Source of the DNA: Patellaria atrata CBS 101060
Taxonomy: Eukaryota
Direction of reading: 5' to 3'
DNA length: 64,000 bases
Assembly: GCA_010093705.1 (NCBI GenBank)
Contig: MU006099.1
Location: 310,001 to 374,000 of the forward strand
The number at the start of each line of letters is the position of its first letter. Position 1 is the first letter of the stretch. Under the pieces are notes generated by a model that worked only from the letters and a program-made list of their open reading frames with translations, ran no database searches and had not been told where the DNA came from. The position numbers were made by a program, and so were the translations under genes. This document shows positions 21,663-64,000 of the stretch, piece by piece.

Positions 21663-23835
21663 AGGGTCTTGTTCAGGTCGTGCACGGTTTCAGACCATGC
21701 ACAGTCGCCCCATCAAAAATCGCACCCCATAGAGTGATTTTGAAAATGATGCAACACGCTCCATATTTGATATATCTATACTAAATTTTATGATGTTGTA
21801 AACAAGAAGCTGCACTTTCCGTCTATCTATATGTTAGGGCTCTAAAATCTCTGTGGCAGTCGTGATTGTCGTCGAGGCCGACCAGTCGTGGGATTGACCG
21901 TTTCTACCTCTACTACCTCAATAATATTATCTAAGAGTTCTATAGCTGGTAGTATGACAATCTGCTTCTTCTACTTCGGTTGTTGAGGGGGTCTAGGTGT
22001 TTTTTGAACCTTTTGTTCAGCTTGTTTGGCTTCTACAGTAATTTGTTGCTGAGCGTTTTTTACCTCCGCTACCCTCTCCCTCTCCTCCTTATCTTTTTGT
22101 CGTTGAAACTTGCGGTCTTTAGCTTGTTCTTCTTTCTCCTCTCTACGTAGCTGTTGCTGAAGCTTATTATTTACTTTACGAGCTTCTTCTGCAGCTTCAT
22201 CCTCCTCCTCTTGCCGTAGGAAATCGCGCGCTTGGGTGATTTTTTGAGGGCTCCAAAACACCGCACCACCATTCTTTGTGCTAATTACTCGTTGTAAAAG
22301 AGACTTCTGCCGTTTACGTTGCCTCTTCTCGCCCTCAAGAGCATTAATTAAACCGAAGTTCTGTTGTTGGAGGATAGTATTAGAGGTAGAGAGGAATTGA
22401 AACTTCGCTTTCAGCTCTTCGACGACAGGGTGCATTACATCAGCAACAACGGTCTCTAGTTTCTTCTCTATGCGTTTCCAATCTTTCTCCGATAACACTG
22501 ATTTAGCTGATTCACTTGAGCTTGGTCTACCGCCTATTTGACGAACTGGTTGCCTCTCCGGCTTTGCTAATCCTTGTAGCACTTCACTCGGATTATATGG
22601 AGAGATACCTGTTTTTTTAAAGCTCCCAGGGATGTTTTTCTCTGTAAAAGCCTTCTGGTAAGCGGGTCAGAATAGCTCAAAAAAGTTCCGTTTTGCAATA
22701 TTCGATATGCCCTGTGATCGGCTCAAAAAGTCGTCGAGATTTTGACTGTAATACGTGGCGAGAGGAGAGAACAAGGAGACGTCGAGGGGCTGCAATCTGT
22801 GCGTAGAGTGAGGAGGATAGTTGGCTAATATGATCTTATCGCTTATACAATACTCCAAAAAAGGCATATTGATATGGGAGCCATGGCCATCGACGATAAG
22901 AAGCCTCCAAGCTCGACCAGCTTTGGTTTTGGTAGAACGGTCAAAAACGGTCTCCAACCACCTCAATCCGAGCTCGTCATTAGTCCATCCTGTCGGTGAA
23001 GCAGTAAAAAAATACCCCTGGTCTTCCGGTCCATAGCCCTCTAACCATCTATCTTGTATCGCTCCTGATACCGATGGGTAGATGATCCCAGGAGGGATAG
23101 CTGTTCCATCTGCACAGATAGTAGCTAGGACCGTAATCCACTCCCGATTCCCGTCCTGTGCGATTCCCTTAACCCTTCCACTTTCAAAGGCAGCTTTGCT
23201 GTAAATCCTACGTGACTTTTTAAGCATACCTATAAGGAAGCCCTTTTCATCCATATTGTACGTATTTTCTGGTAGGGCACTGAACTTGTCGAGCTTACGC
23301 CCAAGGAGTTCGAAATAGAGCTTGTAAAACGGTCCCTGATCGACCTTATGACGGGCTAAATCAATAGGACTGAGATAACCAGATTTGAGCTGATCTCCAT
23401 AGCGCCGATACCACCTCGTAACCCAGCTATTTCCAGGTCTTTTTCCAACGATATGACTGGCTAGATTTCGTACAGTTGCAGGCGTAGGAGGGGAAAGCAC
23501 GATCAGTCAATCGATTGATATATTTAATAGGTGTTTTTGACTGCGCCTCGGTCATCAATTTGAAGTTTTCGATTGCTACCTCGCGGGAAACAGTGACATT
23601 ACGAAAACGCCGCGACAACGTCGTGCGGTCACAATTATACTCTTTTGCAGTTTGGGTTATATTAGGGATATCTTGAAGCTTTAGACTCTCAAGCGCGGCC
23701 TCAATTGGAGTCATATTGGTGGTGGTGGAGTAAACAGTAGTCCTAATTATTCTCCGGATACGTGTATTTTGACAACTGAATTTTGGTTGGCGACCGTGCA
23801 CGCTCTGAAACCGTGTACGGCCTGAACAAGACCAT
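21663..23835 (-). mobile_element. Fot1/pogo (Tc1-mariner superfamily) DNA transposon, full length, inactivated
   Basis: 47-bp TIRs at 21663-21709 and 23789-23835 (41/47 match by hand alignment). TA target-site duplication at 21661-21662 and 23836-23837. Encloses a DDE transposase. Confidence 0.93.
21842..23714 (-). pseudogene. Pogo-type DDE_1 transposase pseudogene
   Basis: HTH N-terminus (MTPIEAALESL..DRTTLSRRF), NMDEKGF, GWTND, LLIVDGHGSH, PPHSTHRLQPLDV and C-terminal RLPQRF. Frameshift near 23500, in-frame TGA at 22667 and TAG at 21971. Confidence 0.9.
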
Positions 23836-24380
23836 TATCCCCAAGGGTTCAATTCTGACTTCATCCCTCAGTTGACGGACATGGATTGAGAGCGAGGATA
23901 AGGTACTCTTTAACCAGGAATTCTGGAGAAAAGGATCGTCGCAGTCAAGGCTACAAGCTTCCTGATCCTGGCCTAACGCCTTCGAACTAAGATAGATATC
24001 TGGTGTATATACACCCTCCCCGTCATAGACGCATCATTTTGTTTATCAGCATGGTTATAATACAAGTACTTCTCTCCTACAAATAAAGACCGGTTAGTAT
24101 TCCACTGGGAAAAAAATGGATGACTTGAAAAGGAAGGGTAACAAAGAATCTATGAGTAGATATAGGGGGAAGGAGACGGATCATAGTCCTTTGCCCTCTT
24201 AACTGAGCGATTTATCTATTCTTTATCTGTGGCTATTATTCTCCTGGGAAAAAAAAGGTATACTTGTAGGATGTATGAGCTATAAGTATCGCTACTACGC
24301 CATCCGTTCTATGTCAAGAAATCAAATCTATCAAAATATTCTACAGGACCCAAGACAGCAAGAAGCCACCCATCAGCGTT

Positions 24381-24764
24381 ATGAAGTGGATCACTTCTCT
24401 TGTCCTAATCCCCCTCCTGGGGTCAACAGCCGCGATCCCGATCAATCTAGAAGTGAGTGCCAACAGTAAAGCAGACTTCGGTTCGGTATGGTTCGATACC
24501 GATAAACTCTTCCTTTGTGCTGGCACCAATTACGCTGATTGCATGTACTACAAGGTCACAGCTGGGAAGTCCTTTGCGTTCGGGGAAGTTCCCACTCCTC
24601 GCTATTCCGTGAAGTCACCCGCAGGATATTCCTGCAAAGCATACGATACTACGACCTGCAAAACAGGGCGGGAGGCAACAATGCCCCCTAGTGGCAGCCC
24701 GGATCTTAGAGTCGTCCCATATTGGATTTATAACATAAAGGCATTCAAATATACCGTTCCCTGA
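24381..24764 (+). CDS. Small secreted cysteine-containing protein, putative beta/gamma-crystallin-like effector
   Basis: 127 aa with signal peptide MKWITSLVLIPLLGSTAA, 4 Cys, and the pattern LCAGTNYADC...GYSCKAYDTTTC...GSPDL....W..NIKAFK. Confidence 0.7.
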   Translation: MKWITSLVLIPLLGSTAAIPINLEVSANSKADFGSVWFDTDKLFLCAGTNYADCMYYKVTAGKSFAFGEVPTPRYSVKSPAGYSCKAYDTTTCKTGREATMPPSGSPDLRVVPYWIYNIKAFKYTVP

Positions 24765-29075: not shown

Positions 29076-31040
29076 CTATGGCTTTGAGAGATTGAAAATG
29101 CGCGTATGCGGTTTCTTCGACGCTGGCGGGCTTTTACCCCCATCACTGCTTTGACGAGCACGGGTCATGAAGCTGATATAGTTCATGTTCATATCCACCA
29201 CCTTACCGTCTTCTACTGCAATTTCGCCTTTGGAGCAAATAGAAATGATTCACCTGGATTTAGATCCACCATTTCTTCCCATACGTTCTTGATGTCCTCA
29301 TCAGATAGCTTGGATAGCCGGGAAATGGCACCCAGATGTGATCGGAATATGTTGAACCAGTCTGGTGACGCAATCCTATGAATCAAAGCAATATTACAGA
29401 GCTCGAGTAGTTTGGTCGAAATCGTGAGTTCCTAGGCTGCTACGATAATACGAGTGGCTACGTGCCTTTGCTCCCGCACTAATGTCAAAAGGTCGTTTGT
29501 AAACCGCTCTGCGGAAGGCTCCGCGAGTATGAACTACGGGATAATCAATATAAGCCGCCTTGAATCGGAGGAAACCCTACCTTGTGCGCTTCATCTAGTG
29601 CGACTACAATATCTTTTCTCTCGGCTACCGATGGTTCATGTTTGACAAACATGGCTAAAGAGATGTCAAATAAATCGTATGCGGTCGCTGGATCGACGAA
29701 AGGATCCGTAGGATTGACATGACTAATTCCCTTGGATTTCCCGACAAGTTACTCGCCTTCAGTCCGAACATTGACGTATCGATGAAGGCCTCGAGGAGGG
29801 GAGGGAAAACCTCTGCAACAGATGCATCTTCTGGCTCTCATTCAGCCCTGCATCTTTCACCGGTTTCTTGAAATCGTTCCAGTTAATCCCGTAACTTCCT
29901 GGTTCTTGTGCAGCGATGCCCATTTTCCGAAGCATATTATCGCGTATCTATTTCAAAGTTATTACATATATGAGCTGGTCAAGTTCACGAAAAAGCTACG
30001 GATTACCTACTGATGCGTATAACGGCTGATGACCGTCACTGGAATGAAATCCCATGAATTGTTTGATTCGGCCTCCATCCAACTGGCTCTGGCTGAATTT
30101 CAGTTTCTCTATTGTTACGGAACCCGAACCCGGTAATTTTGAGTATCTCTCTCGCATAGCTAAGAGATTCCTTTCGCTCGCAAAAACTTTGATTTTAATA
30201 CTCAATGAGCAGAGATGCGCTACCTTGCAAATGGAACCGGACGAGTTCATGTCGTAATAGAAGACTATTCCACACAGAGGGTTTGGCAAATTGATCACCT
30301 CACTGTGGGTGTACAGATAATTCTCTAGCATACAAGCAAGTGCATAACTCTTGCCACTACCTTGCAGCCCACAAATGAAAGCCGACCATGGAGTATCTGT
30401 ATTCAGGAACACCGCTTCCGGGTTATCATAATCGCCAGGTAAAAGACGCTTTGACGTCTTAGGAGCTTCGTAACCAAGCAGACCGTATTGCTTATAGCCT
30501 GTAAAATTTTGACTATTGCTGGGTTTCGTTACCTGTGCACTACTAGGAGTAGGAGCGAAAGGAGGTTTTGGTGCGGCATTACTGAAGACTGCTGGCGGTG
30601 GTTTGGAGGGCTTAGGGCCAAAATAATAAATGAACGGTGGAGGCTGTTGTGTCTCACCCCCGGGTGTCTGGCGTTTCGATCTCAGAGGCTGATTCCTCGC
30701 TGGTTATAGAATTACTGGTGTTGCTTGCAGAATATTCCGGAACCTTGTATCCTCTCGAACGTGGACGCTTGACCGAATTGTTACTTTCCTGAACGCTTTT
30801 TCGAGGCCGGTTACTTCGTCGATCCATCTTCTCGTCAAGGTTTTCGGCCGAAGATCGTCTTCAATCTTTTCCAAAACAGTGTACGAGAAAATAGGGCAAT
30901 TGCTGATTGCCGCCACGTGGTCCGCAGAATAAATGGCATACCAAAATACTCTCGCCTCACCAAAATCAATACCTCCTAGAAAAGTCACCAAGTTTAACGC
31001 AAAATATCTCCACCAGAAAAATGTAGGAAAAATGTAATTC
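29076..31040 (-). pseudogene. HerA/FtsK-like P-loop ATPase pseudogene with extra N-terminal domain
   Basis: PWSAFICGLQGSGKS (Walker A), TDPFVD, VVALDEAHK (Walker B), REQRHVATRIIVAA*E, IHRIASPDW and SDGGKS. Stops at 30704 and 29432; frameshifts at about 29800, 29720 and 29220. Introns at the same positions as the gene at 56137. Confidence 0.85.
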
Positions 31041-32987
31041 TGTAATAAAATTTGTATCAGAGTATAGAGCGAAAGATGCTCTAAGTATATAAATGATTTT
31101 TAATTTAAAAAGAGTTGTTATATCTATTGTTATAACTCGTTTAAGTGGACGGATTTTAGGTGTGCCATTTAATCTGCCGATCACGTGGCCGCCTGTTTCA
31201 CTTCTACTCCTTGTGTTACTTCCATTCTACATTCCGTTGGCCAAGAACCTTCTACAAGCCGCTCTACTCGATTTGGTGGAATATATGATGTCCTAACAGA
31301 GCGGAGTTTCAAGCTGTGCGTATGAACAACTTACCAAATCAGCTCGGGATGTATACTATTAAAACAAGAGGTATTCTAGTGAGGAACTTTATGCGGAAGA
31401 CTAGTAAACTGCAATATTATTACAGATCGTTTGGATGATCAGAATTATCAAAACAAATATCCTGGGGCCGCAATGTGATCAATTAGGACGAAGGACTAGC
31501 TTTATGGAGCGAGATGATTGAGCATTTGACCAGCAGCAATTGAAGAATAGTTTATTATGGTAGTCGTAACGAGAATGGTGTTGTTGAATGTGGCAGAAAA
31601 AGCTATCATAGAACTAATGCTCTTTTAGGAATAGTATCGATCTCTTACGCCAATCATACCACACCGCTCCCCCCTTTTTCAACCTCGTCAATGGCCTCTG
31701 CGATCTGTAACACAACCCCATTTCTCTATGGAAATTCCCTATCAATGAACCGAGTCTTCAAAAGATATGTTTTTACCAATTATGATGCCATTCGACTTGT
31801 CCAAGTATTTACAATGAGGAAATGCTCTGTATATTGTATGGAATTCGCTTATTCTCGAGCTTCCTCCAGTCCCATCTGTAAGAGAAAGTATGTACGGAGA
31901 ACTCTAGACGTACGGACAACTTCGCCGTACAGACAGTAGAGCTGATCAATGCCGGGATTTAATGACATCCCATCGGTTATTCAAATCGTAGAGCGGTAAA
32001 AGAATGCTAATCATAGCAGGTGAGGAGATCACGGAAGCATTTCACTTCTGCGGCAATAAATTTGCTAGATTGGGGTTCTTTGACTGATAGATTGCAAACT
32101 TATCAGCTCCTACGTAAGAAGTAAATGGGAAAAGTAAATAATAGAATGGTAATATTTATTCTCCTAGGTATAGTTGAACCTGGTTTATATCTTTTTAGAG
32201 AGGACCTATGAAGGGTCGTGAGGTCCTCCTTATTGTATACCTTAGGCTGAAAAGCTGATAATCATTCTCTTCCTTTCATTAGTGCTATGTTTTCATTGGT
32301 TATTTTCACCCATTCTCACTCTTTCGATGTATCTCGCGTTCGGCACTGGAATCAATAAAAATATGAATTGACTATTTCCTACGATCCCGTATAACTGTCT
32401 AGGGTAGTTTGTACTGCTTAAGATATCCAGAATACTAACTCTATAGTAAAGAAAAGGAAAGAAACAAGTTGGAGTAGAGAAGACGAAGGAGAAGATAAAC
32501 CACCTGTAGCTGATGCAGGCCCACCCTTGCCGCACTGTCTGAGGGGTCCATAAGTTGATCTTGGCTACCGCAACGGAAGACGGGAAATCCTTTAGTAGAG
32601 TCCAGTGATTACATAAAAATAGAGAAAAGAGCAAATAATTAAAAGGAGAAAATCGACAAAGGTGGGAATCGAACTAAGTTCGACGTGCAAAAGGACAAAA
32701 ATGACGGCCCAGGAAGGCAGGCTATCACTTCGACGCCTACTTTATGCCAGACCGATACATTCAATCTCCGGCTTTGTATATATACAATTCGAGTGTATTT
32801 TCTTTCAGGAAAAGCAAAGGAATGAAAATTAGAGCGATAAAAAATCACTACGCCATCAACAAGACCCCTTTTATGCAGCCACGGTTCCCATCCGAGGATC
32901 TTTCAGCACATGTTTCCGCTGGACACCCCATCAGATCAGTCCTCTCAACAGCTCCGTAGACATAAAGCTCTTCACAAGCAGACATGT

Positions 32988-52562: not shown

Positions 52563-53712
52563 TCAGTAGAAATTGCCAGTCACCTTTCTTGTCAGGTGTT
52601 CACCATATACCACCCTCTTGTATTTTGCCTCTCCACCTGTCAGCTGAACGCATTTGCTCAGCGGTTTGACCTCTGCGTTCCAGTCAGGTTCAAAGAAAAA
52701 AGGAACGCTGACACGATAGCCATCCCCGCGATGGATGACACGATGGACGGTGCTCTTCCACAGCCCATTAGTCCACGTCTCCATCATGTCCCCAATGTTG
52801 ACAACAAATGCTCCAGGAACCGGATCTGCATATATCCAGTCACCAGTCTTGGAGAGCACATGTAAAGCGTTCGGTGTGGGATCAGCAAGAAGCAGCGTAA
52901 CACAGCCATAATCTGAAAGAATACTAATTAGCGAGAAGAACACTTGTTCACGACAACAAAGCGAGTTCAATGCATAATTGATCGAGTGAGGCAGATTAAG
53001 AGTTGAACCAATATTACATACCTGTATGCTCTCCACAGCTGATCTCTCCGCCCCCACTTTCTGCAGTTCTCAGCCCCGGATATCCGATCATACGCAGCAC
53101 CCACCAACTTTTCCTAGTCTTCTTAACAAACTCATCCCGCTCATAATCTTCCAGCTCCAGTGCCTCTCCCATGGCTTTGACGACGGCTGTTCCAACCTCG
53201 ATGACTTGGTCGAGATAAGCATTCGTAACCTCTTTCAGCTCCGGCGGCTGATCTGGCCACAAGTTCCGTCCATGCAAAAACTCGTATGGCGGGCCGTCCC
53301 TAGACTTCCCCTTTGCCCCAACATTCTGCTCCTCGTTAGATTCGCGGAAGAAGTCGATCGCCTCGTGCCAGTCCCTATGGCCCTTGGTGACATTTTCGCG
53401 CAACAGCTGGTAGCCACGAGCCCCATCACCTAACCCATCACCAGCATCGCGACGTTTGATCTTCTGCTTTTCTTCTTCAGGTGTATTCAGGAAGAAGCGG
53501 CGAGCAACGGAGAGAATTGAGCTTGTTACGGATTCTGGGACCCCATGTCCTATGAGAAAGAAAAAACCGACGTCCCTGCAAGCAGCTGCGATTGCAGACT
53601 TGCAGGCATCAATGTCAGAACGGGTGGGCGAAGATGAAAGGTAAGGAGAAATATCAATTGTAGGTAGGTTCACTGGGAAACTGTAAGTTGAGACCTGTGA
53701 TGAGGTTGACAT
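52563..53712 (-). CDS. 2-oxoglutarate/Fe(II)-dependent dioxygenase (IPNS-like)
   Basis: LPTIDISPY, ACRDVGFFFLIGHG, HT|D split by an intron (about 52914-53021), VVNIGDM, STVHRV, RVSVPFF. Confidence 0.92.
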
Positions 53713-54113
53713 GATGAGGGGTAAGGTGAGTCTATCAGATTGGCGGGGACGGGATGGGACATTTCAACGTCGCCAGTAGGTGGGGTAAGCTATGAACTCA
53801 ATCCTGAGTCTTGAGAACAATAAAGTGAGGGTAGCAGTCTCCTGAAAATTTGAGACGAAGAATAGAAGATAGCGTGGTCAATCGTAGATACGGTTCTAGA
53901 ACTACGGATTGTGTAAATATGAGAAGAGAAGACTATTAACTTAATAGACTATGTGAATTTAGATGAGGATTTCGTAGAATACGAGTCCATGCAAATAAAG
54001 GACGGAAGGACAATTGTGAGGTTACAAACACATATATGTACGTGATGTTACTGCAAAGTAACGTCTACGCAAAATACGCTGCCTCATCAACGTGCCCAAT
54101 CGGGTAACTACCT

Positions 54114-55071
54114 CTACTCAACGGCCATCCTGACTTTCAGCAAGTCCTGCTTCACGATAGTATCTTTCTTCTTGAGCAGTTCATCCATATCCCATTGAGA
54201 ATTAACATACCTACCTGCTAGCCACTCCCGTCTCTCCTTTGATAACCAAACTAAAGTATGAGCGGGTAATTCAGGGGTATCAGTAAGAGCTTGATGGTAC
54301 TGCGTGGGAAGCGATATCCCCATACCAGTGGCGACCCCACCTGGATGTATGGAATATGCTAAGATACCCTGATCGCCATAATCGCACATCACAAACTCCA
54401 TCAGACGAAGCTGGGCTAACTTGGCGATCTCGTACGAGTGAGCTCCAGATTGGAGCAAATGTGCTCCGAGGCTTGAAAGCGTGATAATCGTCTTTTCACC
54501 CTCTGACTTTTCCAGCAACAATGGGATCAAAGCTCGGGTGACAAGGTAGGTCCCCTTCAGATTGATCTCCAAGCCTCCCCACCAGATATCCGGATCGCTG
54601 TCCGCAAGCTTGATCCATGGTTCCAGGATCCCTGCATTGTTGATCAAGATGTCGAGACCACCCCAAGCTTCGTCCACCTGTTTCGCCGCCGCTTCAACGC
54701 CGCTATGGCTTGTAACATCCACAGCCGAGACCAAGACCTCCGGAAGCGGTTTCCCTAAACTGACGGCCGCAGCCTCAACCTCAGCCTTCGTCTCCTGCAG
54801 ACTTGAGAGGGAGCGGGCCCAGATGGCAATTCTGGAGGCTCCGGCTTGAGCGAAACTACGGGCCGTAACGCGTCCGATCCCTTTCGAGGCACCCGTTATC
54901 AGAACGCTTTTGCCGGCTAGATTTGCGCTTTTGGGGTCAATGAGAGAATAGGTATCGCGGTGAACGATGGCTACAAAGTCTGTGCCTACAAATCCAGTTT
55001 TAGCATAGATTACAAAACAAAAGATCGGACGTACCATTTGCATTGAGCTTCTTCGTTGGATCTGTAGACAT
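54114..55071 (-). CDS. Short-chain dehydrogenase/reductase
   Basis: TGASKGIG, NNAG, YEIAK (YxxxK), HPG, DTPEL, WLAGRYV. Short first exon from ATG 55071. Confidence 0.9.
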
Positions 55072-56136
55072 AGCGGACAATTTTGAAGTAGAATTGCCTG
55101 ATAAAACTTACCTTGACCTCGAAAGGGGCAAATGAAGCTTTAGATGAGGAAACCCCATCCTTGAAACAAGCCGATTCAAAACATTTGGTCGTGACGGAAA
55201 ATGGCTCCCGATACATACGCGCGGATGGAGGGAAAGTCAAAACCATGAAACGCGCAGCTGGTCCAATTCGAGAGTTGTCTCCATAGAAACTCCTCAACGA
55301 GATTATACACAGTCGTCAAGTCCATTATCGCTCTGATTCTCATAATCAAGATATGATGGCTCGCTTGTGACGTTCTTGTTGGAGTACTGTATGGGTTCTG
55401 GTCATTTTAGAGCTAATGGACTGGTGGGATCTTCGGCTAGCTGACTAAGCTGAGCCCATCTTCATCAGCACCTTCCCCTACCGTCAACGAGAAAGTCTCA
55501 CCCATGACGCTCTTAGTAAAGCTTTGAAAGTCGACCAGATATATATCCTTCCTTTCCAGCACGTCCGCTTTATTATATGCTTATATGGATAAGGGAAAAC
55601 TCCCTTCTCCGTATGAATCAAGATATTGTAGAAAGAAGTCGCACCGGAGAGAACACCGTTATGACACGGCAAACGCACAGCGATAATGGTGGACTACAGC
55701 AAAGTGAGTCATGATTTGCTTTGACATGCGAGAAATGAGTATCTTATTACTCATTTGCAATGGAATGGTGGCTCAAGGCTTACTTTTTGCTGTTCTTTGG
55801 CGTGAATAGAGTCGTTACTCGACAGAACAAGCTCTTTTGCGTCTGATATCCTTTCGTTTCCACCTGATTGTTCCTGTAATATTGTTTGTATTTCAGTCAA
55901 TAACAGTTAATGTCTCCTTTGATTTTTTCTTCAATGAGGGAGCGGCAAATATTCAAGTGATTGAACGCTTAGAATCTCAATTTGAATGAACTTCAAACCA
56001 TCCACAGCAAACAAGGTCTACTACTACTTAATCAGAGTTTTGGCATGGTGGGAATTCTCTAAGCAATTATTGCATACTTTAGAATTTACACCACCAGCAC
56101 AAGAATCATCACAACCTTCATCAAACCATTAATACC

Positions 56137-57767
56137 ATGTCGCTTAGTAGTAGCGAAGAACTCGGTCGTTATCGAGCATTTCTTAAACAAGGAGCCAAAA
56201 TTATGAGCACGTCAGCTGCTGAAGATCTGGCAACAAGCTCCCTTTTTACGTGGGATATCAAGGAGTACGCAGCGAGGAAATACGCCAAGAACGTACTGGA
56301 ACAATACAGCGTTCTAGGATACGATTCTGAGTGTGCAGAGAATGGGGACGACAACGAGCAATTAGATCCTATATTCATCAATACCAATGCGCCCTGGTCC
56401 GCATTTATTTGTGGATCTCAAGGTAGCGGAAAGAGTTACAGCATGTCCTGCATGCTGGAAAGTTTCTTTTCAGATAGTCCAGACATAGGAAATCTACGAA
56501 AACCACTAACCGGTATCGTCTTCCACTATGATACCAACTCTAGAGGTGGAGTATGCGAAGCTGCGTACCTGTGTACGAGAAAAGGTACTAATGTTAGAGT
56601 GCTCTGTTCACCAAGCAATATTCACTCCTTGAGGGAAACATATACAAAAAAATTTCCCGACGCAAAAAACAAATTGAGGGTTGAAGAATTGAAATTTCAC
56701 GCGTCTCATTTGAACGTGGAGCGAATCAAGATGTTGATGGCTTTGAATGATACGGATGGAGAAGTACCCTTATATATGGAAGTAAGTTGTCTTCATACTC
56801 TATATTACAGCTAGTTACTAATATTAGTGAAGGTATTCACCCGTATCCTCAGAGAACTTGCAATAGCGTTTCCGGGTCGTACTGGTGTAAACTATATAGA
56901 GTTCAAGAAAAGAGTTCAACAAGAAGGTTTTGCAAGATCTCAGACCGGTCCAATGAACTTGCGTATGGACCTCCTTGAAAGCTTTATGGATTTGGGTTCT
57001 GAAGACAAGTGGGAGATTTCAGCCTTTCAGAACACCAAACCGAAAAGGAAGTTCGAAGGTGGACCTAAGAGCACATACTTCCAGCAGAGAACGGAAGACA
57101 AATTTGCCGAACAAAAAGGTCCCGCCCTTGATATTTTCAAGTCAGAACCCGGAGAAGTGATCATAGTTGACCTTACAGATCCGTGTATCGATAAATCCAG
57201 CGCCTGCATACTATTTGATATCTGTCTTGGCCTCTTTTGTGAATATAATCCGGGAGGAGAAACGGTTGTTGCACTCGATGAAGCCCACAAGGTGAGTATC
57301 CCTTCACTTGTTATTTTACAGCGTTGAACTTACTAATGTGCCCACAGTTTATGAATAGCTCATCCGCAGCCAAAAACTTTACGGAAAGTTTGATCAAGGT
57401 CATACGCTTGCAACGGCATCTTGGGTCACGAATCATCATTGCAACTCAAGAACCTAGCATATCATCAGACCTGATTGCTTTATGCTCAATGACAATTGTA
57501 CACCGTTTTAAGTCTCCTGAGTGGTTCGAGTATTTGCGGAAGGTTGTAGGGGATCTGTCACAGCTCACAGAGCAAGACAGGAATAACATTTTCAGGCAGA
57601 TCACTCGTTTGCGTACGGGTGAGTCACTTGTTTTCTCAAATGACTCCTTTATCCGCCTGAACAATGGGATTCCCGAAAGACTTGGGACCGATCATTTCAG
57701 AATGCAGACCCGGATGCGTCTCACGGAAGATGGTGGCGGAAGCGTATTAGCTATCAAATCTGAGTAA
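56137..57767 (+). CDS. HerA/FtsK-like P-loop ATPase, intact (about 507 aa)
   Basis: Exons 56137-56781, 56833-57291 and 57348-57767 splice in frame. Walker A GSQGSGKS, Walker B VVALDEAHK, RLQRHLGSRIIIATQEP, IVHRFKSPEW. Confidence 0.85.
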
Positions 57768-58451
57768 TGTTCACTCAAATCTCTTAAAATTTGTATGATG
57801 TTGTTATATGCTTGGAGGCTTTACTTTGTACCTTCTTCTAAGGCGGTGTGTTGAGCTCTATGAAACTGTACAATTTCCAGAATCAGAGATGTGCAAGAAT
57901 TATGCGTTGTCCCTACGAGTCAGTCCCCGTTTGCAGCCGTACGCCAAAGAGCATTTGCGTATACTTTTGTATACCGCCTTCAGTCTCTTCCCCCTGAATG
58001 ACCATTTGGTCCTCCCTATCCAGCCGTAGTGGCGAAGTTCACCATCACCCAATTCAGTCACGCCCTTTGCCAACAAGCAGTACGGAATCACAAGGGCACT
58101 CACAGTACTGCATCCCCTACTAAAATCCCATATTGTCGGATTTGCTATTGTGTTGCTGACGTTCACCGCGTACTGAAAGTTTCAAATCGTCAGTTTTCGC
58201 TATTGCACCGCAAACCTTCACCCCCGTACTAAAGATCTCCATTGTCGAATCTTTCTATTGCCACCTTCCCTTCAGCGCACGTGTACAAGACCTATTGTCA
58301 GACCACCATTTGTACCACAGGGCATAAAACCCTCTCTCCCTCCTTCCATTCCCATTCCCTCCTCTTTCCTCCAACATCACATCCCTTCCAAACCTCATCC
58401 TCACAAATCTCAACCTCAAACTTGATACCTTAAATCCCATACACAGTAAAA

Positions 58452-59024
58452 ATGGAGCATACCCTCCCAGGCTCCCCAAAGCCCCTCCCCAGCAAGCTTC
58501 CCGGTCCGCCACTGCGGCCACATCTGCCCGGACGACACCACCATCGAGGAGCTCCGTACGATCTACGACGCCCGCCACGCCCAATCATACCAGATCCCTG
58601 ATACCGTAAGTTCCGTCCCCGTACCTGTTCCGCCCGTACTAACCGACCGCTGTAGGAGGCGTACAGTACAGGCCGGATGCTGAGGCGCGCGCAGTATCCT
58701 GCGAAGATCGAGGCGTTCTGGGGTCGCACTGTCGAGCAGGTGATCCCGTACGAGATCCAGTCAGGTCTCTCGGAGGATGAGTATAACAGTGAGCGCGAAC
58801 GGTTGCCGCCACTCCGGGGGCACACGGACATTTTGGCAGGGTTGGCTACCCTCTCTGCACTCACGCCAATGCGGGGGGAGTACGTGGCGGAGACGTTAGC
58901 CGCCATTGTACGGTCGAGACATGCGGGTACGAGTACGGGTGTGTCGGAAGTCGTGGTCGAGAGGCTTCAACTGTGGCATTATGACGTACGGGTTATGATA
59001 TCTACGATTCGAGAAAGGCGATGA
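58452..59024 (+). pseudogene. Small orphan gene with probable frameshift in exon 1
   Basis: Frame SFPVRHCGHICPDDTTIEELRTIYDARHAQSYQIPDT splices (GTAAG 58606..TAG 58655) into EAYSTGRMLRRAQYP... The nearby ATG (58452) is out of frame. Confidence 0.4.
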
Positions 59025-59102
59025 GGTTGTGCCCATGAAGGAGTGTTCTTGCTCGATTTGTGGTGATTGATTGGGTTTCCGCGTTCATGTATATAGTACT
59101 CA

Positions 59103-61040
59103 TTATGCCTGCGGGCCACCTTCCCTCATCAATCTATCATGACCCTTCCACAAAATGTCCACCTCCACTCCGTCATCTTTCCTTCTCCAGCCATACGCAA
59201 CCTCCACCCCTTCTAATTCCATACTCTCCCTAATGTCCTTCGCGCATTTGCTATCGTTCTCACGCGGCAATTTCTCTACAATGGGCAGCAACAACCTCGA
59301 AATCGAAAGATAACTATCATCCCTAATGAGGTCTATATCTGCGAGCACCAGCAGCGCAATGAGGGCGGATCCCTGTATACCAACGATGACGCCCATGATG
59401 ATCCAGATGCGTGTCCAGTAGACCCTCACCTCGCTCGCCTGGCGAGGCACGTTGTGCTGATTCTTGAGCTCGAGACGGGGTCCATGGTCGTCGGACGCGG
59501 CGATGGCCCCGATGGAGAACCGCGAGATGAGATCCGCCATCTGCCACGTCGTGATGGTCGTGTTGGGGTTGAAGCGCGAACCGACGTGGTAGAGGACGGC
59601 TGTGTAGTCGAAGTCTCCGGCTGGCTGGAAGCCGTTGAAAGAGATGGCTCCGGCGCCCAGACGGGCTACTGTGTTGTTCATGTAGATCTGGCCTCGGGTG
59701 CTGTTCGTGATGCCGGAGAAGTCACTGAGAGTCGGGTTTATGTCTTTGACCTCCTCGATTGTGCTGTTGCATTGGAGGAGAGTATGCTTCGGGATGATCG
59801 TGTCGTTGAATGTTGCGGCTTGGTAAACTGTCATATTCGCGCAGCGTGGACCACATGAGGAATCATCGTCGCTTTCCCACAACGTACCCATATACGTGAC
59901 ACTTCCTCCGCTCCAAGTGTTGTTTGGTAAAGCCCAATATTGGACAGTTTCGAAATTATCGGTCTACTAATGTTTAGGATTTCCTCTAATATAGATTATT
60001 GATGTGGGGCTTTTACTTACACTATACTCTACGCAGGCATACGTGCGATTGAGAAAATAACACCATACCAGGTCCCTTGTTGGAAGTTCAGCGCAGCTAG
60101 CCGTCGTCCTTACCTCCCGGTTAGACACACGACGTAGTTCGTGGAATGGTTCATCAGGACTGGAGTCTAAGAATGTGTATGCCCAGAAATCGCTGCCATT
60201 ATATACATTCCTGGTAAGTACGCCGTTACTGAAGTTCGTGCCATACTCGGTCTCGTTATAGTTTTGGGACTCGACACCATAGTCATGCGCTGCTGCTGCT
60301 TGTGTACCGACTTCTTGGGAAGGGAGAACGATTGCTCGATCCATGGTCCATCTTGAGAAGTCAGCTACACTAAGGGTTCCGTCGTCATACGATGTATAGC
60401 GGGAAGATGGTTCTGACGCCCAGGTCAAGGATAAAGATGCAACCAAAACTTGTGTACCGAAAGCAAACAGAATCCAAATAATGGATAATCCACAAATCTT
60501 AGCTGATGGTTGAGCGCCCAAATGACCCCACCGCGGCCAAGGCCACGACTTGAATATTAATTCTGTGAGCTTAGTGAGGCTTGAACTTGACAGAATGAGG
60601 TCGAATGTATCCAGATTGTACCATCCACGGCTCAAAAAAGTCCATCGAAGTAAGGAAGCATAATTCTTTAGGGATGAAGCCAAGTTGAGACCGAGGCCAA
60701 GGGTAAGTCCAGTGGTTACACCACCGAACAACCTGTTATCTGTTCTGGACAATCCAAGTTGAGATTTCCATGCCGTTGCGGTCTTAATCGCGAGAATGAT
60801 ACCGATGCATTGAATGAGTGTCAATAGAAATTGACCGATCGTTTTCATAAAGAACGTCACACGAGCTTTGTCTTTTAGGTAACTCCTCTGAGATTTTCTA
60901 TGTACAATTTGAGCGGACTCTAGCATTGGCGAATTCTCCGACTCTCTCTTTTCGGACGCATTGGATGTAGCATTTTTGATCGATGGCCGGGTTCGTGACC
61001 GAGATCTAGAGTCATGGACATCTCTTCCACGTCCTGACAT
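59103..61040 (-). CDS. Uncharacterised fungal membrane glycoprotein (several N-terminal TMs, lumenal N-glycosylated domain, C-terminal TM)
   Basis: Two long exons joined in frame by an intron (about 59964-60020). Hydrophobic segments and multiple NxS/T sequons. Confidence 0.75.
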
Positions 61041-63788
61041 TTTCTTGACTTGACGGACAGGGAAGAATTAAAAAGATATGGTAGTATCTGCACTATCAGA
61101 TGCCAACTATGATGAAGAAAATAGGCAAAGGCGAGGAGAAACGCTGCAAAATACACGCCCGACAAACTACATATACATATAAGAGAATGGACGGTAAGAA
61201 GGTTCAAACAGACACCTACCTTTTTGGCCCCCAAAGGATTCATGAAGGGGGTTATACTTTACAGCACCCACCAATCATCGCGACTTAGATTCTCAGATTT
61301 AAATGGGAGAATACAGGGTCGTGAGGGCGCAGCCCCCATCATGTAGAGGACGAGAGTTACCTGGGAGATCAGGCCCCCAGCCGATCAAAACGGGTGGTAT
61401 CTCGCAGTGAGTGTTGCAGAGCGTTTTGCTGGTGATGATTATTCAGCAAATAATGAATGCTTACGGCCGTATGTTTCTTTAGGGAATGAGAAATGACATG
61501 CAGCTAAATGCAAAACAGTTCGACACAGTGCCCGCTACTCTTTGTTGCCTACGATCACTCATGGAGTCAAAATTCCGATCCTCGTGCTTCCCTGGGCGTA
61601 AGTTTGGGGGCCATTTTCGCGTTTTCTTCTCATGATATCTTATAGTGAGGGATTTTTCCCCTTGAAAGTTTGACTAAAGGAACATCGTGAGGAGATAAAC
61701 GCTTAAAGCTAGTAAGAATGGGTTACTGATGCGAGAGTTACCTTTTTTGAGGGCATAATGTGAAATTTCCGTGGAATTTCAAGTTGGTTCTCACAACATG
61801 ACGTAGGTTAGTTAGTCTACGGCGCCCAGCCAAGAGCTCCGGTGAACGATGCGGTCGGGTATGGTGGAGTGTTTACCCGTTTACCGGGGCAAATCGTGCC
61901 GAATCGCTCCGATTATCAACCAACCACTTGGTTCAGAGATGAAGGTCGATATGGCTGTTAGTGAAATATATAAGCATAGAAGGACCGGTATTCTTGACAG
62001 GTGCAAGACATATTATCGTCAAACAAACTGTGTTAAAACGTATTCATTACTTGCTAAGCCTCACCTGCACCAGCGAAAAGCTAGCGAGGGGCGAAAAAGA
62101 CAGATAAAGAAAGCCCCCAAACTCCAGCAATCGACGCCTCCCGATGCGTCTATTAATAGACTGGATATAGGAAAATTATTTTCCTTGGTCCCTGAAACCT
62201 ACTGAGACTTAAAAGGTCGCTCGATGTCGTCGCCGTTGATTTCAGCCTTGTGAATATTATTCAGTGCGGCAGAGCGCTGCTCTATTGAGCCTAAGGGATG
62301 CACCCCACAAGAGTAAAACCGTAACTCCATAGCCAAATCTGAAGCATTCGTTAGCAATCAGAACTTGCATTCGAGACCAGATACTAACTTACCTCATTAA
62401 GAATACTAAATGGTGCCAACTTTCCCGTTGAGGTAAGCCTTTGCTAATAACGGCCACCCCAGGAAGAGAGTAATGCATGGGACGAACCTATTACCATCCT
62501 GATTAGCTATAGTTCTTCTAAAAGAATAGAAAGAAGTAGGTGTTTACTCACATAGTTGCCGATCTGCCCAAATGATTTGCCACATCTCTGGTCCTGAAAC
62601 TGTGGATAGGGGTTGTGGTCGGGTATCTCCCGTACGGATGCGGTTCCTTCAAGTACATGCGAGCGGAGCGGAAGAATGCACGAACTGGTGTTGGGGAAGG
62701 CATTTTTTGTTTTGATTACAATGTAACCGGATTGAGTAGCTGATTGGGTTGTAGAGGAGAGATGTAACAGCGAGTATGTTACAAAGAGAGGAGATTGATG
62801 TAGAGTATAGACTGATGGTTGAGAGGAGAGTTGCAAGTGCTGTTACAGATGTACTTATCTGAAGCTGCTGATTGGATGCTTTGAGATGCTGTGAAAAGGA
62901 GTACCTACTGCAATGTGCGACTTTCGTCTTATATACAAACCGCAGCAGTTTTGATAATGGCTCCTGAATAGGGTTATGGTGAAACGAAGACATCTCCGCT
63001 ATTGATCGTCGCGAAAGGGCCCGAACATCTCAGCCCAATTATCAGGAGATGTATAGACATGACCAGCGGGAGAAATCATGGTAAAGTAGAAATTTACGAG
63101 CATGGTGTGAGATGTTGTTGAAACTCTGACGGAGCGAAAGCGTGGGAAGAGCGTGGTGTGATACAAAAAGCAGAAAAGGTCCGTGCGCACGATCGGGACC
63201 GGTCTAGCGTAAAACAGGCGGACCTCCCTAACTTTTTTCATACAAAGTATAGCATCCGCTCACTCCACCAAAAACTTCTAGAATGTCAAAAGTATGATTG
63301 CACTTCAGGTTGTCATTCAGTACTGTAGCCTGGAAGTACGTGCTATACGCGAGCAACAGATAGCACTCACTACTCCATAGTTCGAACAATCAGACTTCTT
63401 TTACAATCTACTGGACAAAGTAGCATTACTCCTTTTATCATCTCTTTAATGTCATTCCTGACTTATTTGCGACAACTGGCAAGAAGGCGTTTTCCAATGC
63501 GATGTACGATTACCGTATTATATAGTACAACTGTCAAATCCCATAGAAGTCGATTGTGGAGTACACTTTTGTAACAAATACAAAAACCCTAAAATGCCTA
63601 CAAAGGCTCAAAATAGCAACGAAACAAAAAATCCCCTTTCTTGTCTTCCCCATTGTTAAAGTTACTATTTTCATACTTGATCTTTATGTCGCTTCTAAGG
63701 TACACATCGCAATATCATGAGCTGTATAAGATATAGGACCACCCGTTCGAAGCTACCTAAGACAGATCAGAAAACTCCACCTCAAAGA

Positions 63789-63977
63789 TTAACGATACTC
63801 CACCTCAGCAACAATGCGGTCCATTATCTCAATCTCCCTTATCTCCCTCCTCAGCTTGGTATTAGCGATGCCGTCAGACCTCCAATCCAGGGTTAACAGC
63901 AAAGCGGAGTTTGGCTCAAGATGGAACGATGCAGACAAATTCTGGCTCTGCGAAAGTAGAAACTTTGACAACTGCGT
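63789..63977 (-). CDS. Possible last exon of a gene extending beyond the window
   Basis: About 60 open codons following TAG acceptor-like sites. No family recognised. Confidence 0.25.
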   Translation of the reverse strand, partial: TQLSKFLLSQSQNLSASFHLEPNSALLLTLDWRSDGIANTKLRREIREIEIMDRIVAEVEYR

Positions 63978-64000
63978 CTACTATAACTTCAACGACAGCG

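Follow-up and report, generated by a model that had tools for sequence, protein, structure and literature searches.

The ATPase gene and its product

The stretch of DNA analysed here (the window) comprises 64,000 nucleotides of the fungus Patellaria atrata CBS 101060 (contig MU006099.1, positions 310,001 to 374,000 of the forward strand) and carries, at 56137..57767, an intact gene that belongs to the clade-6 HerA/FtsK ATPases of eukaryotes. As had been proposed in an earlier note made from the letters of the window, the gene consists of three exons: starting from the ATG at 56137, it encodes 507 residues without an internal stop. The exon structure was chosen from 15 open splice combinations, and the selected one has GTAAGT and GTGAGT donors. 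The product matches the public gene model P0004 (Patellaria atrata CBS 101060 M501DRAFT_171180) letter for letter over residues 25-531 of the latter; the 24 extra N-terminal residues of the model come from an upstream exon. The GC content is 0.43 in the gene versus 0.47 across the window. The features of the gene are listed below, with motif positions in the 507-residue numbering and motif conservation counted over 328 homologues of at least 440 residues.

56137..56781, + strand: exon 1, residues 1-215; N-terminal helical extension, pre-Walker hairpin and Walker A
56413..56436, + strand: Walker A motif GSQGSGKS, residues 93-100; kept in 325/328 homologues
56782..56832, + strand: intron 1, 51 nucleotides, in frame, contains a stop; GTAAGT donor
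56833..57291, + strand: exon 2, residues 216-368; helical insert, low-confidence loop and Walker B
57277..57288, + strand: Walker B motif DEAH, residues 364-367; kept in 316/328 homologues
57292..57347, + strand: intron 2, 56 nucleotides; GTGAGT donor
57348..57767, + strand: exon 3, residues 369-507 and the stop codon
57405..57419, + strand: presumed arginine-finger motif RLQRH (role after section 21 of PMC10853773), residues 388-392; 305/328 homologues
57441..57455, + strand: sensor-1 glutamine motif ATQEP, residues 400-404; 305/328 homologues
57696..57743, + strand: C-terminal clade-6 signature hxhxxRxRhsxDsGx[ST], residues 485-500; exact match

The motifs reported in the earlier note (GxxGSGKS, DEAH, RxQRHxG and ATQEP) were all found. 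Because all four are kept in 305 to 325 of the 328 homologues, their presence is not a matter of chance, and their conservation points to selection for a working ATPase throughout the family. According to section 21 of PMC10853773, the HerA/FtsK superfamily has a glutamine sensor-1 after strand 4, with an arginine finger shortly upstream of it, and RLQRH (388-392) and ATQEP (400-404) show this arrangement. Both intron positions are common to a second, damaged copy of the gene in the window, and breaks of the open reading frame (ORF) at these positions recur in 12 locus groups each.

A Pfam scan and the structure model revealed no further domain in the 507-residue protein, which agrees with its description as a stand-alone ATPase. 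No Pfam model exists for the family. The only Pfam cut-off that P0004 passes, and narrowly (21.5 versus 20.3 bits, over 65 residues around Walker B), is that of Zot (PF05707), and for this reason the labels "Zot" and "AAA+" carried by family members in databases are, on the sequence evidence, annotation spill-over and do not denote a toxin: only the generic ATPase core is in common with Zot, and the fungal protein is devoid of the membrane and toxin parts.

Predicted fold

The AlphaFold2 model of P0004, computed on an 85-sequence alignment (pLDDT 86, pTM 0.85), was compared with known structures using Foldseek and VIA-align, and all 50 rows shown belong to the HerA/FtsK/VirB4/TrwB superfamily. 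The best match is Sulfolobus HerA (4d2i; Z 24.7, root-mean-square deviation 3.7, 323 aligned residues), followed by Sir2-HerA (8wiv, Z 23.3), the C-domain of DndH (7es4, 22.9) and VirB4 (4ag6, 22.6); TrwB (Z about 17) and FtsK (Z about 16) match more weakly. A HerA/FtsK fold is supported by the predicted structure and by profiles, which agree with the HerA/FtsK/VirB4 assignment made in the earlier note. A viral structure library yielded only distant matches of the HerA/A32 type, with 8-15% identity. The score of a two-copy complex prediction, obtained without an alignment and without folded controls, was 0.00 and amounts to no verdict.

Between its Walker A and Walker B halves the model contains a predicted helical insert (helices 218-225, 236-251, 260-269 and 274-289, and also 294-305, in P0004 numbering), in which the four-helix insert of the clade-6 family can be recognized. 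The N-terminal extension is modelled as a helix (27-57), a strand and a second helix (63-72), with pLDDT of 51-95. Structural alignments begin at residue 61 of the model versus residues 111-145 of the HerA chains, that is, past their HAS barrel, and neither the model, whose N-terminus is helical, nor a Pfam search contains an indication of a HAS barrel. The repair HerA of the HerA-NurA pair (4d2i, 9x1m, 7f6d) shares the fold with the fungal protein (Z 20-25) but differs from it in possessing the HAS barrel and a NurA neighbour, the identity being 12-19%. The HerA proteins of anti-phage systems (Sir2-HerA/Nezha, HerA-DUF4297 and TdpAB) likewise share the fold (Z 18-23), and their profile matches are weak and confined to the region around Walker B; the fungal protein scores 27 bits versus a family cut-off of 850 and has no Sir2 or DUF4297 partner.

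A widespread eukaryotic family

With exon 1 alone as a query, 986 relatives were found among 3150 candidates, and a profile of the family matched 3609 clusters (50% identity), 1314 of them at E 1e-30. Members occur in Ascomycota and Basidiomycota and, when a more distant query is used, also in chytrids, Mucoromycota, stramenopiles and Spongospora. The earlier note thought of an undescribed fungal defence or non-self-recognition system; the family itself is already described computationally in one paragraph of Rakesh, Aravind and Krishnan 2024 (PMC10853773), as a eukaryotic group of clade-6 HerA/FtsK-like domains that are "widespread in fungi" and are present in other eukaryotes too. Section 22 of that paper gives the group a four-helix insert and the C-terminal signature hxhxxRxRhsxDsGx[ST], the latter kept in cognate DndH; in that section the members have no nuclease linkage, no function is assigned to them, and mobility is suggested ("novel genomic elements"). 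The insert, the exact signature, the wide spread and the absence of a fused or linked nuclease are all common to the described group and to the protein from the window. According to the same source, most eukaryotic clade-6 members have a winged-helix-derived N-terminal extension and one or two C-terminal winged-helix domains. The protein studied here differs in having no C-terminal winged-helix and in showing no sign of mobility at its locus.

The strict signature is present in 169 of the 215 homologues that reach the C-terminus. The P. atrata protein stops seven residues past it, and 133 of the 169 motif-bearing homologues end within 15 residues; a tail longer than 60 residues was seen in only 27 of 306 sampled motif-bearing members, a sample that consists mostly of Ascomycota. 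Among the longer proteins, the C-terminal tails of the Agaricomycetes members P0237, P0254, P0257 and P0262 look winged-helix-like or OST-HTH-like by eye, a reading that was dropped for want of Pfam support. Lineage-specific C-terminal domains with no Pfam match, CxxC-bearing in one group and helical in another, were observed in P0114, P0128 and P0138 and in P0119, P0177, P0180, P0183 and P0190. No fused effector recurs among the 66 long homologues scanned, where only isolated matches to FAD-binding, zf-MYND and C2H2 domains were obtained. Linkage to a nuclease is rare as well: one PD-(D/E)XK gene was found as a neighbour among 26 loci scanned, and the protein from the window has no fused nuclease.

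The statement of the earlier note that the ATPase has no known function holds for the whole family as far as searches of open-licence main texts reach. These searches returned no functional or later study of the family, and NCU01896, MGG_02890, CHGG_06647, THITE_2111371, PFICI_01650 and M501DRAFT_171180 appear in none of the main texts searched. MGG_02890 is also missing from the searched supplements of PMC8551967.

Relationship to Mad8 motors

In PADLOC, mad8 is the best model for the family, with an E value of 5e-18 and matches to 83 of 85 members, compared to 9e-10 for the best HerA model. A tblastn search of 72,556 plasmid records produced six matches. In all five annotated ones the match lies in the C-terminal domain (the last 300-400 residues) of proteins of 1728-1858 residues, whose genes are preceded by a large kinase gene and a gene for a protein of 520-560 residues. 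The best PADLOC model for these large proteins is mad8 in five of five cases, and that for the upstream gene is mad7 in all three cases tested. The family profile scores 107-159 bits on the plasmid Mad8-type proteins over the whole domain, with the tail included in four of five (the fifth protein ends early, beside an insertion sequence element), versus 32-52 bits on three archaeal HerA-like proteins and 30 bits on HerA from the PDB. Two Bacteroidota MADS-like operons (L086 and L087) were seen to carry a PP2C phosphatase gene directly 3' of mad8.

Judging from these comparisons, the closest kin of the family among the prokaryotic sequences found are the ATPase domains at the C-terminus of Mad8 from MADS systems, and not Sir2-HerA or repair HerA. 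The P. atrata protein and Mad8 are about 25% identical over residues 103-528 and share QYxxLG, Walker A, PLxGxxFHY, DEAHK, RxxRH, SQ/TQxP and the C-terminal RxRxTxxGG. They differ in architecture: Mad8 has about 1800 residues, about 1400 of them in further domains, and is encoded in an operon, whereas the fungal protein is a bare 507-residue motor whose gene contains two introns and is linked to no kinase, methylase or nuclease. In an IQ-TREE phylogeny of 46 rows (34 eukaryotic, one from a viral contig, eight Mad8-type and three archaeal) the eukaryotic, viral-contig and Mad8-type rows form one group, set apart from the archaeal ones with 100/99 support. The eukaryotic family is therefore likely to be a sister of the Mad8/DndH-type motor domain, with no direction of transfer implied. 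Mad8 is equated here with the clade-6 DndH on the grounds of the shared tail and operon. The link to Mad8 by name was found in no paper and is new here; PMC10853773, in its treatment of the group, states it for clade-6 DndH. MADS was experimentally shown to be an anti-phage system in which deletion of mad8 weakens phage defence (bioRxiv 2023.03.30.534895), and its Mad6-Mad7-Mad8 part is described as a DndFGH-like restriction module (bioRxiv 2023.03.30.534895, PMC13662399).

Outside plasmids, a phage collection contained no tblastn match to the family, and in a sample from an archaeal phylum two of 301 matched, weakly and partially. An apparent bacterial stand-alone homologue with 39% identity, located on a 4.5-kb contig of a bacterial metagenome-assembled genome (L081, the same as G001:C255), was rejected as a probable misbinned fungal contig because its upstream WD40-peptidase neighbour is common to fungal loci and because it nests among fungal sequences. 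Among the other 400 genomes of the phylum to which this assembly was attributed, only two match, as frames of 1848 and 1965 residues. A partial family member (L083:3-935) lies on a 47.7-kb contig from a viral collection, beside genes of a Ydc2/A22-type resolvase, a Clp protease, a BspA leucine-rich-repeat protein and a CRAL/TRIO protein. The gene set of this contig is giant-virus-like. The family member on it is most closely related to proteins from chytrids and stramenopiles and to unnamed ones; the list of eukaryotic clade-6 members in section 22 of PMC10853773 does not include viruses.

Inheritance and neighbours across fungi

The family mostly behaves as a vertically inherited low-copy gene in Dikarya, with sporadic duplication, as follows from the two kept intron positions, the taxonomic branching and the fixed place in Sordariales. 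The order of the tree follows fungal classes: Agaricomycetes, Pezizomycetes, Orbiliomycetes, and then Sordariomycetes together with Dothideomycetes. In Sordariomycetes, the best 120 matches of one query, inspected by eye, are mostly one per species, with 53-88% identity. In Sordariales the gene is accompanied by genes for a response regulator and CCD97; the Neurospora orthologue is NCU01896, and NCU01895, which bears the adjacent number, is a response-regulator gene. In other lineages the fixed neighbours are GST/SUR7, DFP and WD40-peptidase genes. The earlier note counted a single-copy, syntenic and universally conserved housekeeping gene against its own proposal, and the family comes near to this in Sordariomycetes, appearing syntenic and nearly one per species there; it is not universally single-copy, with two copies in the window and duplicated blocks elsewhere.

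Some lineages show neighbours of a conflict type. In five of 49 locus groups a gene of a dynamin-like GTPase lies 0.5-5.5 kb from the ATPase gene; three different orientations occur, and the groups fall on different branches of the tree. Fungal genomes contain about 10-20 dynamin-like genes each, so that five such groups in 405 kb of flanking DNA would exceed chance expectation. The excess would be equally expected if both genes simply reside together in accessory compartments. An OTT_1508 deaminase gene is found near the ATPase gene in two locus groups, and ankyrin genes are also among these neighbours; HET, a fungal kinase, the PD-(D/E)XK nuclease, an SF1 helicase and DUF3723 with DDE were seen in single cases. 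In one locus group, ATPase copies that are 93-98% identical in DNA, one of them damaged by stop codons, sit on mosaic blocks with different right flanks. These copies are candidate cargo of a large mobile element; DUF3723 is named in the literature as common Starship cargo. The loci concerned are as follows:

Dynamin-bearing loci: L013, L023, L039, L042/L043, L069 and L078; L042 has a dynamin gene on both sides
Mosaic duplicated blocks: L009, L011, L012, L013 and L023, with DUF3723, DDE, deaminase and ankyrin genes

Neighbours of these kinds are all missing beside the gene in the window. The marks of a Starship or of a transposon with terminal inverted repeats (a recombinase or transposase at the boundary, terminal repeats or a target-site duplication) are likewise lacking there, in 53000-60000 and among the ORFs scanned near the gene. 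A comparison of 317 ORFs from the window flank with 6286 ORFs from 81 family loci gave only a 24.5% match of one SDR to another and one marginal match of 29 residues.

The window and its second ATPase copy

The earlier note placed the gene among orphans in an accessory, non-core region of the genome, and neither part of this description could be upheld. Pfam matches at E 0.01 or better were obtained for 22 of the 58 window ORFs scanned, and these include pyruvate dehydrogenase E1, UbiE/COQ5, a copper P-type ATPase, Rad4, a sulfite reductase-type oxidoreductase (flavoprotein), Ysc84, Luc7 and Gpi16. The window is not an accessory island and consists mostly of core genes. The names COQ5, MET10-like, SSK1/RRG-1 and Mx-like, which we take to apply to window ORFs or neighbours of family members, go beyond the Pfam labels. 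Upstream of the ATPase gene lie a divergent SDR gene and a 2OG-Fe(II) dioxygenase gene (Pfam). Downstream, at 59103-61067 (-), is a large gene of a membrane protein that scores 0.96 to widespread Ascomycota clusters, 16-21% of whose members carry DUF3176. Between the latter and the ATPase gene there is a small two-exon gene (58452-59024, +) with a CGHxC-like motif and no Pfam match. No terminal or target-site repeats were detected in 53000-60000 or flanking either ATPase copy, no transposase or recombinase is next to the intact gene among the ORFs scanned, and there is no signature of repeat-induced point mutation (RIP) around it. The ORFs scanned with Pfam contain no nuclease gene as its neighbour and no linked kinase, methylase or Mad7/DndG gene.

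The decaying paralogue mentioned in the earlier note does exist, less than 27 kb from the intact copy:

29130..30544, - strand (tblastn span): pseudogenised paralogue, 37% amino acid identity to the intact copy

It retains the same two introns and is damaged by an in-frame stop within the sensor motif and by two frame changes outside the introns. There is no DNA-level similarity remaining between the two copies, and no RIP signature in the paralogue. By these marks, the second copy is a pseudogene that stems from an old duplication. Just upstream of it, at 30909-31192, lies a 284-bp stretch with GC of 0.36 and 38-nucleotide inverted arms (84% complementary) that resembles a miniature inverted-repeat transposable element; it occurs once in the window and has no clear target-site duplication. 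A DDE_1 (pogo-like) transposase gene broken by a stop (21974-23834, -) is separated from the pseudogene by about 5 kb. Two small secreted-looking cysteine-containing paralogues with no Pfam match, 46% identical over 43 residues (24279-24761, +, and 63865-63993, +), lie 4-6 kb from one ATPase copy each, and this pair may hint at an old segmental duplication.

Expression

The only two runs listed for P. atrata consist of contigs that lack splice joints and have the character of DNA. For the Neurospora orthologue NCU01896, vegetative expression is low (0.7-1.2 fragments per kilobase of transcript per million mapped reads, FPKM). According to the supplement of PMC4065252, staurosporine changes it from 0.67 to 1.23 FPKM in the wild type and from 1.19 to 4.37 in the czt-1 mutant (3.7-fold, q 3.5e-4). 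According to the supplement of PMC4203796, where orthologues are given for three Neurospora species, NCU01896 is flat over eight stages of sexual development (1.0-1.65-fold), which gives no support to a meiosis-specific role. The five-species orthologue tables in PMC5509106 contain its neighbour but not NCU01896 itself.

Possible role of the ATPase

The role that we propose, tentatively and with somewhat less than even confidence, is that of a motor on nucleic acid, itself devoid of a nuclease, which cooperates with a partner from another locus, plausibly to survey foreign DNA. The best new argument for a role in defence is the identity of the closest prokaryotic relatives found, which are the Mad8 motors. 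The conflict-type neighbours in some lineages, the duplication and loss seen in the window, and the low vegetative expression of NCU01896 with its 3.7-fold rise on staurosporine in the czt-1 mutant also count in favour of this role. By analogy with the superfamily, the protein would form an ATP-driven ring in which the arginine finger acts on the neighbouring subunit and nucleic acid is threaded through a pore lined by the helical insert. The C-terminal RxR..DGG element, a tail shared with Mad8, would either belong to the working motor itself or serve the partner as a docking site. PMC10853773, in its passage on the group, suggests that the tail is a docking site for a eukaryotic factor. It is possible that the tail is instead intrinsic to the motor, because it is terminal and is conserved in Mad8 and in fungal proteins with wholly different partners. 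A domesticated, weakly expressed surveillance motor of this kind could engage foreign or extrachromosomal DNA and pass it to a cellular effector, and might be dispensable enough to be duplicated, lost and taken up by accessory blocks. A bolder form of this idea, which we consider unlikely as a whole, is a module of ancestral immunity: the MADS/DndFGH motor would have been freed of its nuclease and would have persisted for more than 500 million years in fungi, and likewise in chytrids, algae and certain giant viruses. There it would serve as a sensor-motor for foreign nucleic acid, recruiting a host effector via the conserved tail and, in some lineages, acting together with Mx-like dynamin GTPases.

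Several observations weigh against surveillance of foreign DNA. The window locus has neither a partner gene nor an operon-like defence system, no partner gene recurs across the family, and most neighbours are housekeeping or metabolic genes that are syntenic within lineages. The near one-per-species conservation across Sordariomycetes, with 55-80% identity, is unlike that of fast-evolving fungal non-self genes. Among the five dynamin groups, two have a DNA block in common and do not count as separate cases. The tree includes only three archaeal outgroups, long branches meet in it, and eukaryote monophyly is weak (50/87). The staurosporine response of NCU01896 in the wild type is 1.8-fold, without a significance test in the source. 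NCU01896 is absent from the four searchable supplement files of the Neurospora virology paper PMC7648066, and five supplements of a Podospora non-self paper contain no family label, a weak negative, as the search was by label. The literature searched contained no biochemical data on any eukaryotic member.

A part of this evidence would be accounted for if the protein is a housekeeping DNA motor, i.e., a long-domesticated HerA-type translocase that aids a host nuclease or repair complex and has no role in defence. The gene is near one-per-species and, in Sordariales, syntenic beside the response-regulator and CCD97 genes, the expression of NCU01896 is flat through sexual development, the window is composed of core genes, and archaeal repair HerA is the top structural match, though defence HerAs come within about 2 Z units of it, in effect a tie. 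The absence of the HAS barrel, the sequence kinship to Mad8 rather than to repair HerA, the low expression of NCU01896 and its absence from orthologue tables that hold its neighbour, and the existence of duplicated and pseudogenised copies all argue otherwise, and we regard such a motor, which might serve in end resection or at stalled forks, extrachromosomal circles or organelle DNA, as unlikely. The substrate may also be RNA or protein, with the ATPase being a ribonucleoprotein remodeller or a VirB4-like protein-handling enzyme, possibly assisted by dynamin-like GTPases. The closeness of VirB4 (Z 22.6) to HerA among the structural matches, the absence of a DNA-binding or nuclease domain from the 507-residue protein, the by-eye appearance of the basidiomycete tails and the dynamin neighbours, with their varied orientations, are compatible with this. 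Nevertheless, the closest prokaryotic relatives belong to a DNA-restriction module, there is no membrane anchor or secretion partner, and the long tails occur in only 27 of 306 motif-bearing members, which makes an RNA or protein substrate quite unlikely.

Finally, the ATPase may move or segregate the DNA of a selfish or mobile element with the help of a cellular factor, as the words "novel genomic elements" in PMC10853773 imply. The nearly identical copies on mosaic blocks beside DUF3723, DDE transposase, dynamin and deaminase genes, the relative on the viral-collection contig with giant-virus-like genes and the presence of two copies within 27 kb in the window are in accord with mobility. 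However, neither copy in the window is bounded by terminal or target-site repeats, no transposase or recombinase lies beside the intact gene, there is no RIP signature, and the two copies have no DNA similarity; conserved introns, synteny and a species-like tree point in the same direction, and for the duplicated blocks the better reading is that larger elements carry them as cargo. Already weak at the window locus, this explanation seems very unlikely to us.

Concluding remarks

The window locus itself is ordinary, adding one more member to a family with thousands of clusters, and it is the family that matters more. Its members are HerA-type motors that occur widely in eukaryotes and go under the wrong names AAA+ or Zot in databases, and their closest prokaryotic relatives come from a system whose action against phages has been shown by experiment. 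No HerA-type translocase in eukaryotic DNA metabolism is known to us so far, and if the family proves to be a repair motor, it would be the first one. If it is true that the family acts against foreign nucleic acid, a new link between bacterial and fungal immunity would be established. The orthologue NCU01896 puts the family into a model organism, Neurospora, where these possibilities are directly testable.

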